From Deltaproteobacteria bacterium (GTDB taxonomy: Bacteria > Desulfobacterota > Desulfobaccia > Desulfobaccales > 0-14-0-80-60-11): a DNA stretch of 58,685 bases. Positions 6,842 through 58,685 of the stretch are shown in pieces. The DNA lies in contig JAPLJC010000088.1 of the NCBI GenBank assembly GCA_026388765.1, positions 1 through 58,685 on the forward strand. Direction: 5' to 3'. Below the pieces are notes generated by a model. It saw only the letters and a program-made list of their open reading frames with translations. It ran no database searches and was not told where the DNA came from. Position 1 is the first letter of the stretch. Each line of letters starts with the position of its first letter. A program made the translations under genes and the position numbers.

Positions 6842-7010
6842 TCAGTAGCCAGTAGTTAGTAGTCAGTAGTCAGTCAGTGGCCAGTAATCAGTAATCAGGG
6901 GAAACTTCTCTTTCCTCAGCCTTATATGATTGTCTCCTGCACCGGAGCCAGACCAGGACATCCCCCAGAAACCAACACTGGCAACTGGCAACTGACTACT
7001 GGCTACTGCC
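6842..7010. repeat. Inverted pair of 7-bp tandem arrays (CAGTAGY)n ... (RCTACTG)n
   Basis: Left arm 6842-6898, right arm 6976-7010; arms abut the TPP-gene start and the lon stop. Confidence 0.85.
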
Positions 7011-41667: not shown

Positions 41668-41755
41668 AAAAAGGTTAAAGGGGAAAAGGTTAAAAGGGGA
41701 AAACCCCACATGTTCCCGGGTTTTTTTCCCTTTTCCCCTCTTCTCCTTTTCGCCC
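41668..41755. repeat. Inverted pair of ~8-bp purine/pyrimidine tandem arrays
   Basis: (AAAAGGGG-like)n 41668-41703 and (TTTTCCCC-like)n 41721-41755. Confidence 0.7.
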
Positions 41756-54289: not shown

Positions 54290-55573
54290 ATGCTGGATCT
54301 CAAGTTTGTCCGGGACCATCTGCCGGAAGTGGAACAAGCCATGAAGAATCGGGGGCTGGCAATCTCCCTGGACGATTTTCACCTCCACGAAGGTGAGCGC
54401 CGGCGACTGCTGACCCAGGTAGAGGATTTGCGCCACCAACGGAACACGCTGTCCCAGGAGATCGGCAAGTTGATGAAGGCGGGCAACACCGAAGAAGCCC
54501 AATCCCTCCGGACCAGGGTGGCGGTCATCAATGAGGACACCAAGGACCTGGAGAACCGGGCGGAGCAGCACGACGCCTGGGTGCGGGATTTTCTCTTGAC
54601 CCTGCCCAACCTGCCCCATGCCACGGTGCCCATCGGCGCCAGCAGCGACGACAACCCGGTGGTCAAGACCTGGGGCGAGCCGCCCAGCTTCGCCTTTAAC
54701 CCCAGGCCCCATTGGGAGATCGGCGAGGCCCTGGGCATCCTGGACTTCGAACGGGCCGCCAAGATCACCGGAGCCCGCTTTGCCCTGCTCAAAGGCGCCG
54801 GCGCCCTGCTGGAGCGGGCCCTGATCAACTTTATGCTGGAGCTGCACACCAAAAAGCATGGTTATCTTGAGGTGCTGCCCCCTTTTATCGTTAATGAGGA
54901 CTCCCTGAGGGGAACTGGTCAATTACCCAAGTTTCAGGAAGACCTGTTTAAGCTCGAAGGGTGTAATTACTATTTGATCCCCACGGCCGAAGTGCCGGTG
55001 ACCAATATCCACCGGGACGAAATTCTCCGGGCCGAGGATCTGCCCCTCTATTACACCGCCTACACTCCCTGCTTCCGGTCCGAGGCGGGCTCTTACGGCA
55101 AGGATGTCCGCGGCCTGATCCGCCAGCACCAGTTCGACAAGGTGGAGCTGGTGAAATTCACCGCGCCCGAGACCTCCTATGACGAGTTGGAAAAACTGCT
55201 GGCTGATGCCGAAGAAGTCCTCCAGGAACTGGGACTCTCCTACCGGGTGGTGGTGCTGTGCACCGGGGACATGGGCTTCTCTGCGGCCAAGACCTACGAC
55301 ATCGAGGTCTGGCTGCCGGGCCAGGGGCTATACCGGGAGATCTCTTCCTGCAGCAACTTCGAAGACTACCAGGCCCGCCGGGCGGCCATCCGTTTCCGGC
55401 GGCCCGGGGTCAAGGGCACCGAACTGGTGCACACCTTGAACGGCTCCGGCCTGGCCGTGGGCCGCACCATGGTGGCCATCCTGGAAAACTGCCAGCAGGC
55501 TGACGGCAGTGTCGTCATCCCCGAAAAGCTGCGGCCTTATATGGGGGGAATGGAGAGAATCAGTAGTCAGTAG
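54290..55573 (+). CDS. serS: Serine--tRNA ligase
   Basis: [31 protein letters not shown] and HTLNGSGLA motifs. Confidence 0.97.
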
Positions 55574-55707
55574 CCAGTAGCCAGTAGTCAGTTGCCAGAG
55601 ATAAACCAAATTTCAGCAGTCGACTTTGCTAGATAAAAAAAGTCCCCTTTCGATGGTGAATGGGGACTTTTTTTGCCTTTACTGACTACTGGCTACTGGC
55701 TACTGCC
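55560..55707. repeat. Inverted pair of 7-bp (CAGTAGY) arrays enclosing a bidirectional terminator
   Basis: Left arm 55560-55598 (contains the serS stop), right arm 55681-55707. Confidence 0.85.
55635..55674. terminator. Bidirectional Rho-independent terminator
   Basis: A7-GTCCCC...GGGGAC-T7 between convergent genes. Confidence 0.85.
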
Positions 55708-56916
55708 TCATTTCGCCGCCCGGACGCGCTCGTTGGGTTTGAAGGGGCCGCCACTCGTCGGCGTGGCCACGGCCCCGGTGTTTCCCAGGAGTTCCGTCAC
55801 CTTCAGCTCCCCTTGGGACTCATCCGAAGTGTAACCCAGGACGGCGTGGGTCGTGGGGTTCACCACCTCTTTGCCCGGCGCCACCACCTTCAGACGGTCA
55901 CCCACCTTAACGCCGGCATTCTGACCCAGATTGAGATAGGTCTTGCCCTCTTTGACAAACTCCACCCGGCCGAACCAGCGGATGTTAATGAGTTCCCCCC
56001 CAACCCGCAAGGCATTGGCGTTGGCGAATTTGGTCACCGCCTCAGCATTCAACGGGCCGGTCTCCACCGTACCGGCGATGGACTGTTCCTTGGTCCCCAT
56101 GAAGGTGTCGTAGACCTGCATAACCATGGCTGCCTGGGACCCCTTCTCCGGCGGCATGATGCCGGTGAGAACGATGCCTTGCACCCCCAAGTAATCACCG
56201 AGGGCCTTAATGTTGGGACTCAGAGAGAGCTTCCCATTGATGCCGGCCTTGCCCAAGGCCTCCCTGACCTGGTCCTGGCCCACCACCCGGAGGTCTTTGG
56301 TCCGGCCTGCGGCGTCTCCCAGGGCTATGGCCAGGGTGCGGTTGAGACCCTCATAGCTCGTGGGGGTGTCCAGATCCGGGATCACCGCCACCGAGCGGCC
56401 CACATACGGGGCCTTTTCCCCCCGCCCCTGGGAGACAAAGCCGCCCATCCCCTGCTCCCGGAGGATGCGGTCCACTTCTGCCTTCACCAGCTCCTGCAAC
56501 TTATCGGGCGGCAGAGTCTTGGCTCCCTTATCCTTCTCTTTACCCACCGCCTTGGAAATGGCATCGACCAAACGCTGCTGCATGCCCTTGAACTCCCGGC
56601 CCTTCTCCACGTAAAGATATTCCGGCTGCTCCGGGTAGGTGAGCCAGTACGGATTCTTGCTGCGGACGTAAGGCTTGCCGTCGATCATCACCGTCTCTTG
56701 CTGGGCCTCGGCCGGCACAGTCTCCTCGTCTTCCTCACTTGTTGGATTCCCGGTCACCCAATTCTTGACGCTGGTAGCGGCGCCGCAACCCGTGAAGGTC
56801 GGGACCACGAAGGTCAGCAAAACGATGAATGCCAATAACCCGCTAAACTTCCTGGACCTTGGGTTTTCGGTTTTCGGTTTTCGGTTTTCGGCAAAAGCGA
56901 AAAGACTCCACAGCAT
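55708..56916 (-). CDS. Lipoprotein, CsgG/FlgT-like
   Basis: Lipobox FTGC; C-terminal YLNLGQNAGVKVGDRL...NPTTHAVLG; RBS aagga before 56919/56916. Confidence 0.75.
   Translation of the reverse strand: MLWSLFAFAENRKPKTENPRSRKFSGLLAFIVLLTFVVPTFTGCGAATSVKNWVTGNPTSEEDEETVPAEAQQETVMIDGKPYVRSKNPYWLTYPEQPEYLYVEKGREFKGMQQRLVDAISKAVGKEKDKGAKTLPPDKLQELVKAEVDRILREQGMGGFVSQGRGEKAPYVGRSVAVIPDLDTPTSYEGLNRTLAIALGDAAGRTKDLRVVGQDQVREALGKAGINGKLSLSPNIKALGDYLGVQGIVLTGIMPPEKGSQAAMVMQVYDTFMGTKEQSIAGTVETGPLNAEAVTKFANANALRVGGELINIRWFGRVEFVKEGKTYLNLGQNAGVKVGDRLKVVAPGKEVVNPTTHAVLGYTSDESQGELKVTELLGNTGAVATPTSGGPFKPNERVRAAK
56862..56891. repeat. (GGTTTTC)x4 tandem array
   Basis: Four perfect heptamers; inverted relative to 57341-57373. 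Confidence 0.9.
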
Positions 56917-56965
56917 CACATTTTTCCTTTTTAATTTTTGGGTTCTCGGAAAAAGAGAAAAATCA

Positions 56966-57337
56966 TTATTTTATACCCATGGACAATCCTTTAATCATCT
57001 TCCTTAATCGGTCCAGAGTGGACAAGAATGGATTTAATTCTTCAAGAGTCAGGTAGCCAATTTCGTTGGATAGGATTAGCTGGGTTTCCAATTCGGCCAG
57101 GGAACCTAAGCCTATTGACAAAAATTGCCGGAATTCTTTGGGTGAATTTCTCCCCTGACCTTCAGCGATATTAGACGGAATTGATACCGCGGCTCTTCTG
57201 ATCTGATTTGTCAAGCCAAAATTCTCTGAACGTGGAAATTTGCTCGTTAGGCAATACAGCTCTTTGGCAAGCTCAATGGACAATTTCCATACTTCTAAAT
57301 CCCGAAACGATCTGGATTTCGATTTTGTCGTATGCAT
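56966..57337 (-). CDS. Four-helix-bundle protein (23S rRNA intervening-sequence protein / Avd-like family)
   Basis: FRDLEVW, FP.SE.FGLTNQIRRAAVSIPSNIAEG and GSLAELETQL motifs; AT-rich. Confidence 0.92.
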   Translation of the reverse strand: MHTTKSKSRSFRDLEVWKLSIELAKELYCLTSKFPRSENFGLTNQIRRAAVSIPSNIAEGQGRNSPKEFRQFLSIGLGSLAELETQLILSNEIGYLTLEELNPFLSTLDRLRKMIKGLSMGIK

Positions 57338-57340
57338 TTT

Positions 57341-57373
57341 AACCGAAAACCGAAAACCGAAAACTGAAAACCG
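57341..57373. repeat. (GAAAACC)n tandem array
   Basis: aaccgaaaaccgaaaaccgaaaactgaaaaccg, 3 nt upstream of the four-helix gene ATG. Confidence 0.9.
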
Positions 57374-57381
57374 TCTTTAAT

Positions 57382-57415
57382 AAAAAAGCCCACAGGGATA
57401 TTACCCCGTGGGCTT
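57382..57415 (-). terminator. Rho-independent terminator of the porin gene
   Basis: AAGCCCAC..GGG/CCCC..GTGGGCTT stem with A6 on the left. Confidence 0.75.
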
Positions 57416-57436
57416 GGTTAAGTCAACCGTTTTAGG

Positions 57437-58685
57437 TTAGAAGAACATGAAGGCGACGAACTGCACGCGATGGGCTTCGCCAAAGTCCTTGGCCCCAGCG
57501 CTGGGCTGCCCCTGAACCTGACCAGGAACTAATGGTCCCACACCGGTGAGGCTTTGCGGGTTATTGACCTTCTGCAAGTAGTCGGTGCGGCCGTAGGTAT
57601 ATTGCAAGCCGAACTTGATTGCCTCGATGGGCCGGTACCACAGGGTCAGGTCGAACTCCTGCCACAGCTTCACCTGGTCGTTGAGGGTGGCATACATATA
57701 ACCATACGGGTTGTTGGCTCCCTGCGTGCGCGCCAGGGCGGCGGAGGCGCCGCTTTCGATCCCATAGGACCGCTGCATGCCCCAGACCGCGTTCAGGAAC
57801 CACTGGTTAGTGAAATAGTATTGTCCTTGGAGGTAACCGCCGAACTGATTCATCAGTATTCGATTGAAAAAGATGGAGCCGGTGGGCCCAATTCCCGTGA
57901 ATTTAAACCAGCTGGCGTCAGAGTCCTGGGCCTCGCCGAAGGCGCTGAGCCCCTGGCCGATGAACCACTGGGCGCTCAGGGAGGCGGTGCCTGCCAGGTT
58001 GGCGCTATAGGTGGGCAGCACCGGGATGAAGAGATTGGCCTGCACCATCCAGGGATCTAGATACTGCTGGCCGCGTTGAAAGCCGGTATTGGTGCTATAG
58101 GCGTTTTGGCCAAAGGTGCCAAAGGCTTGAGCCGCAGTATTGGCGCGATAGCGGATCTGCTGCCAGCCGGCCGTCACCTGGGCCGCGAAGCCCCGGGGCC
58201 GGCCAAAAAAACCCGCCTTGCCATAGAGGTCCTTCTCGTAGGCAATTTTGGCATCGATGTGCGGAATCTCGGAAGACTGGCCCGGCAACCCGACGCTGGC
58301 GGACTGGACTCCAGCCGGTGGGGCGACTGGGGCGCCTCCTGGGGCGGTTAATACTTGGCCATCAAAGGCAGCGTCAGCCGTGCTGGGATCATACGGTTTT
58401 AAGATGGCCGCGGCCACGGTCCAGTTCCCGGCGAACTTCTGGGTCAAGCGGATCTGAGGGACCCGGCCGCTGGGCATGCCGTGGTTATTCAATGGGGTGT
58501 CCTGGGCGTTTTCAGGAGTGTACTCACAGAACATGGTCCAATACTGGCCCAACATCAGTTCGGTTTCGGGCCAGTTCAGGCGGAACATGGCGTGCCGCAG
58601 CCGCGCGCTGTAGGAGGAGGTATTGCTTTGCCGCGGATCCTGGACCGGGTCGAAGTCAATTTCAATCAAGCCGGTGGTGGTGGCG
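57437..58685 (-). CDS. Outer-membrane porin-like beta-barrel (DcaP-like), 5'-truncated by the window edge
   Basis: IEIDF, ARLRHA, LGQYW and RVPQIR motifs; alternating strands and terminal Phe. Confidence 0.75.
   Translation of the reverse strand, partial: ATTTGLIEIDFDPVQDPRQSNTSSYSARLRHAMFRLNWPETELMLGQYWTMFCEYTPENAQDTPLNNHGMPSGRVPQIRLTQKFAGNWTVAAAILKPYDPSTADAAFDGQVLTAPGGAPVAPPAGVQSASVGLPGQSSEIPHIDAKIAYEKDLYGKAGFFGRPRGFAAQVTAGWQQIRYRANTAAQAFGTFGQNAYSTNTGFQRGQQYLDPWMVQANLFIPVLPTYSANLAGTASLSAQWFIGQGLSAFGEAQDSDASWFKFTGIGPTGSIFFNRILMNQFGGYLQGQYYFTNQWFLNAVWGMQRSYGIESGASAALARTQGANNPYGYMYATLNDQVKLWQEFDLTLWYRPIEAIKFGLQYTYGRTDYLQKVNNPQSLTGVGPLVPGQVQGQPSAGAKDFGEAHRVQFVAFMFF

Follow-up and report, generated by a model that had tools for sequence, protein, structure and literature searches.

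We analysed a 58,685-bp contig (JAPLJC010000088.1, our C180) of a Deltaproteobacteria bacterium, which at its full length is the window referred to below and belongs to a draft genome of 3.72 Mb (58% G+C, 93% complete). Our subject is a 512-bp feature at 56862-57373, in which a gene for a small four-helix-bundle (4HB) protein of family PF05635 is enclosed by two inverted arrays of heptamers, the arms. We consider this feature to be probably one copy of a compact gene cassette of the intervening sequence (IVS) type, here lodged in the leader of a lipoprotein mRNA, with transcription from the host promoter and with arms that form a stem. Comparison with relatives shows that the cassette entered its site between an outer-membrane gene and the lipoprotein gene as a unit, that it was then vertically inherited through one genus and several allied genera and that it can decay to a gene-less hairpin, while the arms stayed complementary as their 7-mer changed and the protein was kept under purifying selection. 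Two loose ends, the over-representation of 7-base repeats and the existence of a very large PF05635 family whose function is unknown and which has been met chiefly in rRNA intervening sequences and through a distant relative (Avd), are possibly one problem.

The initial annotation, made from the sequence of the window, had described a four-helix-bundle gene enclosed by inverted heptamer arrays and without transposase or integrase, and this description holds. Tandem Repeats Finder places a GGTTTTC array (period 7, 4.3 copies, 100% matches) at 56862-56891 and another (period 7, 4.7 copies, 92% matches, unit AACCGAA, i.e. the reverse complement) at 57341-57373. As an inverted repeat, the arms span 56862-56896 and 57338-57372 (35 nt, 91% complementary, 441 nt between them), with four more pairing registers because they are periodic. 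The sole long open reading frame (ORF) between them runs from 56966 to 57337 on the minus strand and encodes 123 amino acids (aa); the ORF list of the window has no transposase or integrase between the arms, and the inter-arm stretch has 40% G+C as opposed to 58% for the genome. Read along the coding strand, a G-rich heptamer arm is followed by the PF05635 gene and the complementary C-rich arm:

57338-57373, minus strand: 5' arm, about 4.7 GGTTTTC units on the coding strand (one of them AGTTTTC), ending 3 nt before the ATG.
56966-57337, minus strand: PF05635/TIGR02436 four-helix-bundle gene, 123 aa, as judged from the ORF, family scores, a structural relative and purifying selection.
56892-56965, minus strand: spacer from the 4HB stop codon to the 3' arm, with an AAGGA Shine-Dalgarno-like motif and the GTG/ATG at 56919/56916 that opens the lipoprotein frame.
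56862-56896, minus strand: 3' arm, 4.3 perfect GAAAACC units on the coding strand, within the open lipoprotein frame.

When the minus-strand RNA is folded in silico, the two arrays pair with each other in the minimum-energy as well as the centroid structure, and the predicted stem continues across the 4HB start codon. At -149 kcal/mol the predicted fold is more stable than shuffled sequences (-130.4, sd 6.2; z -2.99), only 2 of 100 of which were as stable. Together with the inverted repeat, this predicts that the arms can form a stem of about 33 bp looping out the gene, much as had been proposed at the outset. Rfam has no match in 55400-57600.

That arms and gene belong together is shown by an allelic series. 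We mapped the outer-membrane gene, arrays and PF05635 in the lipoprotein locus of 29 relatives and of our own genome (30 loci). In the window, the surroundings of the cassette are:

57437-58669, minus strand: upstream gene of outer-membrane type (the 'porin' of the initial annotation), without Pfam or NCBIfam match, its position kept across the order.
57386-57426, minus strand: terminator-like hairpin and T-run with an embedded TTGACT-17-TAATAT promoter-like site, from motif scan and conservation.
55708-56919, minus strand: downstream lipoprotein-like gene with a signal peptide ending FTGC, judged by eye.
55560-55705, no strand assigned: gene-less inverted heptamer pair, TCAGTAG/CCAGTAG versus the complement, which fills the convergent gap between serS and the lipoprotein gene and has a terminator-like hairpin in its loop.

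Upstream gene, 4HB gene and lipoprotein gene thus all lie on the minus strand. Gene plus both arms were found in 15 of the 30 loci (G000, which is our own genome, G003, G004, G006-G012, G015, G016, G019, G022 and G024; the gene of G008 has a stop codon). Decayed genes occur in three, being split, with both arms kept, in G002, truncated next to one arm in G014 and reduced to a fragment with one arm in G005. Neither arms nor gene are present in 11 (G017, G018, G020, G021, G026-G029, G031, G033, G034), where about 100-250 nt separate the host genes. One further locus (G013) has both arms around a 146-nt loop without a gene; as the ends of this hairpin match the G010 cassette (96% over the first 49 nt, 83% over the last 131 nt), it is a deletion derivative. 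There is no allele with arms around an unrelated loop among the 30 loci, nor is any target-site duplication visible when filled and empty alleles at this site are compared. As alleles hold arms and gene or neither, the arms are gained and lost along with the gene. The terminator/promoter block, whose -10 hexamer falls into the hairpin loop, is kept across the order in empty and filled alleles alike. Only about 10 nt separate this conserved block from the cassette downstream, which puts the latter in the leader of the lipoprotein mRNA.

Empty alleles had been suggested in the initial annotation as a means of checking the cassette, and presence/absence polymorphism is indeed found here and at two other sites. 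In the convergent gap between the lipoprotein gene and serS, a full PF05635 cassette occupies 6 of the 30 loci in either orientation, the window has its gene-less pair and three genomes (G017, G027, G028) have no array. Two loci of this gap, L120 (G009) and L137 (G005), contain inverted AGTGAGC-type arrays of 5-10 units around loops of about 410-470 nt; these loops have no PF05635 match and may hold other cargo or a fully decayed gene. The third site is the gap between an ABC ATPase gene and its permease gene (own contig C77), with a cassette in 3 of 29 loci, assorted arrays in others and, in four loci, a gap of only 9-18 nt without array. In G003 the permease is 97% identical to ours and the ATPase/permease gap lacks the cassette; a related one, 76% identical to our copy over 500 nt, lies one gap further down the operon. 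Back at the lipoprotein site, the cassettes of one subclade, L115 (G007), L120 (G009) and L124 (G010), carry an extra 150-200 nt with short arrays between 4HB stop codon and 3' arm, namely a GGTTTTC run in direct orientation right after the stop codon and then TCGAAAA repeats, and are thus nested or compound.

The two arms change in concert. Their 7-mer varies among species (GGTTTTC, TGTTTTC, GGTTTGC, GGTTTTT, or AGTTTTT alternating with GGTTTTT) and is always shared by both. In a MAFFT alignment of the 15 orthologous cassettes, 93.6% of the cells of a 24-bp helix are paired and eight helix pairs have changed on both sides. We count 23 doubly changed cells as compared to 6.6 +/- 2.0 in shuffles, none of 500 of which reach 23, and only 0-1 once the partners are slid by 1-3 columns. 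Given that the species are kin and that positions one unit apart are non-independent, these double changes should be read as few events that were spread by concerted evolution.

Arms are, moreover, the rule for PF05635 genes at large. In our own genome all six such genes are bracketed by inverted 7- or 8-mer arrays, each locus with a unit of its own, and PF05635 is present in 38 of 41 related genomes. Of 14 control genomes, that of Bacteroides thetaiotaomicron alone has the family. We scored two further sets of loci, the best PF05635 locus from each of 30 genomes of relatives and a many-phyla set of the best 80 of 595 relatives, one genome per species (76 of the 80 could be scored, the flanks of the other 4 being too short or interrupted by Ns). 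The latter spans Bacteroidota, Planctomycetota, Cyanobacteria, Acidobacteriota, Verrucomicrobiota, Proteobacteria, Spirochaetota, Firmicutes, Patescibacteria, Gemmatimonadota, Nitrospirota and others. The 200-nt left flank was aligned locally with the reverse complement of the right flank, and a locus passed at a score of at least 27 if the best period of its arm was 7-9 with a periodicity of at least 0.55; windows shifted from the loci by 600-1000 bp served as controls. By this measure 21 of 28 relatives' loci and 58 of 76 many-phyla loci have arms (79 of 104 in all), as against 3 of 968 controls. A stricter test (inverted-repeat score at least 30, period 6-9, periodicity at least 0.70) was passed by 18 of 29 and 31 of 76 loci, respectively, and by none of 392 shifted windows (107 from relatives' and 285 from many-phyla loci) or of 3000 random windows of 300-400 bp from our own genome. 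The enrichment of arrays around such genes, which the initial annotation had left to be checked, is therefore borne out.

With our own copies included, 85 of 115 loci pass the arm test, and the median arm length at these is 32 nt (4.4 units). Upstream arms, read on the coding strand, have 34% G and 13% C, with G exceeding C in 75 loci and the reverse in eight. By crude longest-open-frame gene calling, the PF05635 gene points the same way as its upstream neighbour in 72 of 80 loci and as the downstream one in 69 of 78, its G+C content falls below that of the flanks in 81 of 85 and a Shine-Dalgarno-like motif precedes it in 23 of 85. Among 59 many-phyla loci, proteins also resemble each other more when their units do: mean identity falls from 0.66 between proteins with identical units (7 pairs) to 0.575 at one mismatch (29 pairs) and 0.47-0.51 beyond, an association that 0 of 2000 label shuffles reach. 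The unit ACGAGTG, for instance, recurs in two Acidobacteriota and two Verrucomicrobiota with proteins that are 62-71% identical. Such an association is expected equally from co-inheritance of whole cassettes or from specific recognition. No cassette was seen within rRNA among the fetched loci, nearly all of which have coding flanks (four doubtful ones gave one tRNA only), and no phage record carries the gene at E 1e-8; 33 plasmid records do.

On plasmid alpha of Nostoc sp. PCC 7120 (L181, 3776-4126) the stop codon of a gene annotated as 'four helix bundle protein' is followed by a CTCTGCC-type array; no array precedes its start, and a transposase gene ends about 550 bp upstream. In G027 (C1:3065483-3086641) at least seven near-identical PF05635 matches crowd into 21 kb, each with an in-frame TAG and some also with a TAA, and this cluster is either a repeated pseudogene region or something else.

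The protein itself is a member of the family named after 23S rRNA intervening sequences (PF05635, E 1.1e-40, 138.5 bits with a cut-off of 33.8; TIGR02436, 125.8 bits with a cut-off of 24; NF008911, 141.7 with a cut-off of 137), as had been proposed, and its likeness to the accessory protein Avd of diversity-generating retroelements (DGR) is distant only. The two share a distantly related four-helix-bundle fold and pentameric relatives, whereas our protein stays below the cut-offs of the Avd models (PF22296, 18.5 bits with a cut-off of 40; NF033474, 21 bits with a cut-off of 80) and has no template/variable repeats near it. We thus rejected an identity as DGR Avd, also because the 93%-complete genome yielded no reverse transcriptase (RVT_1). 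Across 10 aligned 4HB sequences P54, N56, I57, A58, E59 and G60 are invariant. The nearest solved relative is XCC0516 of Xanthomonas campestris (PDB 2gsc, E 4e-24), an entry with five chains, and the relative 2rld was likewise deposited with five; from this likeness, a homopentameric ring may be envisaged for our protein. Its nearest named relative in the species collection, from a 'Desulfobaccia bacterium' metagenome-assembled genome, is 72% identical, and the ratio of nonsynonymous to synonymous substitution (dN/dS) among orthologues has a median of 0.10 (range 0.04-0.33; 27 of 91 pairs with finite dS).

What kind of element combines these traits? The closest parallel is the IVS in helix 45 of the Coxiella burnetii 23S rRNA, which, according to the portions of Warrier et al. 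(2016, PMC4990558) available to us, holds an S23p ORF in a loop that terminal inverted repeats close with a 28-bp stem. The start codon of this ORF is directly preceded by three tandem GACAGAT heptamers, whose number varies among strains; RNase III cuts were mapped mid-stem and remove a weak Shine-Dalgarno motif, and S23p is stated to be a homopentamer. Judged from that text, the window cassette shares with 23S intervening sequences the sense S23p/PF05635 ORF in the loop and a terminal-inverted-repeat stem of about 28-35 bp, and with the Coxiella element in particular the heptamers before the start codon, a poor Shine-Dalgarno motif and the lack of a mobility gene. It differs in its location between protein-coding genes rather than in rRNA helix 25 or 45 and in that both of its arms are regular heptamer arrays; RNase III cleavage, mapped in Coxiella, is putative for our cassette. 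Our genome encodes RNase III, and no 23S gene is assembled in it. As the anatomy of the Coxiella IVS is present except for the rRNA host, we adopted the IVS-type reading. The initial proposal of an IVS architecture moved into an mRNA context is thereby upheld as far as Coxiella-type stem, preceding heptamers and sense ORF go.

Mechanistically, we envisage that the cassette would be transcribed by read-through from the host promoter, for PF05635 genes run in the same direction as their neighbours and are mostly without a Shine-Dalgarno motif. Once transcribed, the arms would zip into the stem of about 33 bp and mask the 4HB start codon, and by analogy with the Coxiella IVS, this stem may serve as a substrate of RNase III. 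Folding or cleavage could then set the amounts of both the 4HB protein and the downstream lipoprotein. Since a single site offers empty, full, decayed and gene-less alleles together with compensating arm changes and a conserved protein, arm cutting and protein binding are directly testable.

Several findings weigh against such a scenario, one being the way in which the 3' arm relates to the lipoprotein gene. In seven species (G000, G004, G007, G009, G010, G013, G014) the arm appears to lie inside the lipoprotein frame, which opens at a conserved MMLKNL start upstream of it (preceded by AAGGA), so that the arm would be read as ..ENRKPKTEN.. and, in the conserved N-terminal pattern MMLKNL..ENRKPKTEN..FRK, fall into the N-region of the signal peptide (window 56862-56919 on the minus strand, L112, L115, L117, L120, L121, L124). 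Three of these species (G009, G010, G014) have no in-frame start codon after the 3' arm; in nine others the lipoprotein ATG follows the arm. With the start codon upstream of the arm, a cut in the stem would separate start and gene body, and no lipoprotein message would survive if cleavage were constitutive. It may therefore be that the stem folds or is cleaved only in part or in a regulated manner, or else that the arms work chiefly as DNA. Stem mismatches show no sense-strand excess of G-U wobbles (82 sense, 109 antisense, 230 other), which speaks against an RNA stem because selection on RNA only is expected to tolerate wobble. Moreover, 30 of the 115 PF05635 loci fail the arm test, and the Coxiella ORF looks expendable or decaying in the available text of PMC4990558 whereas ours is conserved, so the functions of the two may differ. 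We also compared the contigs (contigs only) of four metatranscriptome runs from one study, X1-X4, with 56500-57700, and they cover 57436-57700 in the upstream gene and, in X1, also 56553-56703. None covers the 4HB gene, which allows no verdict on expression or processing, and arm matches in RNA contigs stem from other array loci since their flanks are unrelated. For annotation, the lipoprotein N-terminus is a case in point that arrays can be read into neighbouring genes.

Heptamer arrays are abundant in this genome well beyond the cassettes. Among short arrays (at least 3.5 copies, at least 85% matches) period 7 prevails with 188, followed by periods 6 (33), 8 (16) and 9 (4). Altogether we found 491 non-overlapping period-7 arrays with 94 distinct canonical 7-mers; unlike arrays of period 6 or 9, they most often have 4.0-4.9 copies (200 of 491) and become far rarer above 5.5. 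Of those with at least three copies, 360 of 432 lie between genes, in a genome that is only 24% non-coding according to the gene calls used. Inverted array pairs within 3 kb number 126, with loops low in G+C, and 79 of these are gene-less with loops of up to 300 nt. Gene-less pairs show no G/C polarity relative to transcription (32 versus 28), and no PF05635 remnant was found in loops of 40-460 nt apart from four full cassettes in that set. The early idea that the other array pairs of the window are 'empty' forms of the element is therefore not supported: these gene-less pairs gave no gene remnant, and many of them have other 7-mers. A gene-less form derived by deletion is seen in the G013 hairpin.

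Such abundance could mean that the arrays are generic intergenic repeats of this lineage, comparable to the STRR repeats of cyanobacteria and born by slippage at operon junctions, where the gene merely lands or survives, which would make the arms a property of the site. This would fit the mostly intergenic location of arrays and the many gene-less inverted pairs without PF05635 remnant, the occurrence of other low-GC genes (for an Mrr endonuclease and a DUF429 protein) between array pairs and the different arrays found in the ATPase/permease gap of different relatives. We nonetheless hold it to be quite improbable, as 11 of 30 alleles lack arms and gene together and none has arms around an unrelated loop. 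Arms also accompany the gene where arrays are otherwise rare (six genes and no arrays in 60 kb of G039), protein similarity tracks the 7-mer across phyla, and it is the arm upstream of the gene that is G-rich in 75 versus 8 loci, whereas gene-less pairs are unpolarised. Somewhat better placed, albeit still unlikely, is the notion that the arms act as DNA. They would then be the ends of a non-autonomous mobile element, either as terminal inverted repeats or as single-strand hairpins, and its movement would depend on recombination between like arrays or on an enzyme encoded elsewhere, with the RNA stem as a by-product. Gain, loss and relocation between close relatives, as exemplified by the ATPase/permease cassettes of G000 and G003 (76% over 500 nt next to permeases that are 97% identical), a 7-mer shared with similar proteins across phyla, the missing wobble excess, the low G+C content of the gene in 81 of 85 loci and the 33 plasmid records are all in keeping with it. 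Yet no transposase, integrase or reverse transcriptase is associated (no RVT_1 was found in the 93%-complete genome), filled and empty alleles reveal no target-site duplication, no phage record carries the gene and the copy at the lipoprotein site has passed by vertical descent through a whole genus, with purifying selection on its protein. A DNA-only element, moreover, would have no need for the strong co-orientation with host transcription.

A further possibility is that the protein reads the repeats: a pentameric ring would bind about five heptamers, the arms being its own operators for autoregulation and the gene-less arrays its targets. The copy-number peak at 4.0-4.9 units with its sharp fall above 5.5, the median of 4.4 units for arms, five chains in 2gsc and 2rld along with the homopentamer stated in the accessible part of PMC4990558, and the tracking of 7-mer by protein identity would all suit this idea. 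So would array density: per 100 kb, three relatives without an intact gene have 0-2 arrays of at least 3.5 copies and four genomes with the gene have 5-16. This trend of density with gene count is, however, weak and imperfect (8 kin relatives, samples of 60-106 kb), for G039 with its six genes and arms (L018) has no array in the 60 kb sampled and G027 with 19 matches has three in 100 kb. Nor do arrays across the genome follow the 7-mer of the cassette, as counts of (GGTTTTC)3 and (GTTTTCT)3 were 35/20 in G000, 56/46 in G008 and 30/12 in G016 regardless of cassette unit; both units were abundant in all genomes tested, and with these two patterns a genome-wide 7-mer switch with the cassette found no support. 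A one-to-one match between repeat families and paralogues is likewise unsupported, since 94 canonical 7-mers face six genes, and the link between protein and 7-mer is explained equally by co-inheritance. The idea thus gained no support from the tests run, and we regard it as doubtful. The same low odds apply to its widest form, in which PF05635 rings would be the partners of bacterial heptamer repeats on RNA or single-stranded DNA, with cassettes as master copies and gene-less arrays at operon junctions as targets. If true, however, this would amount to a genome-wide layer of post-transcriptional or recombinational control, with rRNA intervening sequences as one special case.

Heptamer repeats as such have been reported before, including GGGAATC in Xanthomonas and Nostoc (PMC4692102), TAACTGA in Beggiatoaceae (PMC4679880) and four copies of GGGACCG in Geobacter metallireducens (PMC2700814). 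From what is available of these sources, cyanobacterial short tandemly repeated repetitive (STRR) sequences and other heptamer repeats resemble our arrays in being tandem 7-mers of 2-6 copies with many units per genome, intergenic, often right after a stop or before a start codon and sometimes in inverted pairs. The terms '23S', 'S23', 'four helix' and 'intervening' are absent from the portions of the three papers at hand, whose supplementary neighbour-gene tables could bear on the matter; PMC4692102, in its accessible part, states that no detailed literature on 7-base repeats is available and calls their functional role only potential. Going by titles and the openings of abstracts, no paper naming the protein family was found to concern the repeats; PMC10053308 treats the family for its Avd likeness only, and PMC10910872, in the part available, lists a '23S rRNA IVP' among proteins associated with CRISPR adaptation modules. 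As far as the literature was accessible, it yielded no report of PF05635 genes lying between inverted heptamer arrays anywhere but in rRNA (the tables of PMC4679880, as well as Table S4 and Figure S2 of PMC2700814, could bear on this). To call the cassette undescribed, as the initial annotation did, is hence justified for the general rule but not for its rRNA form, which is a known element. New here are the allelic series at one orthologous site, the count of compensating changes and dN/dS, as well as the leader position with its translated arm and the negative tests of trans-specificity.

Among mobile repeats, repetitive extragenic palindromes (REP) and their paired form REPIN, with the REP-associated tyrosine transposase (RAYT), come to mind, where a single gene is likewise flanked by inverted short repeats that are otherwise dispersed mostly as gene-less intergenic hairpins. 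Our gene, in contrast, encodes a small helical bundle instead of a tyrosine transposase, its repeats are tandem 7-mers that differ widely in sequence rather than members of one palindromic family, and dispersed arrays do not track the unit that flanks the cassette. A REP/RAYT-like system was therefore discarded, the flanked gene being PF05635 and not a Y1 (IS200/IS605-type) transposase. With respect to transposons and miniature inverted-repeat transposable elements, the cassette has inverted arms, and neither a duplication nor an internal transposase was seen; no systematic search was made for an enzyme acting in trans.

Our genome has other low-GC ORFs between inverted heptamer arrays (C233:1009-1942, C33:13046-13817, C70:877-1731, C51:29465-29888, C228:31485-31783, C189:7302-7651). 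Their products are an Mrr-type restriction endonuclease, a DUF429 protein, a membrane-like protein of 237 aa and three short proteins (109, 85 and 90 aa) that match no Pfam family. Within the window, further arrays of 7- and 8-mers start 1-13 nt after stop codons or fill entire gaps between co-directional genes (43471, 50851, 21533, 14512, 6842-7008 and 41669-41751).

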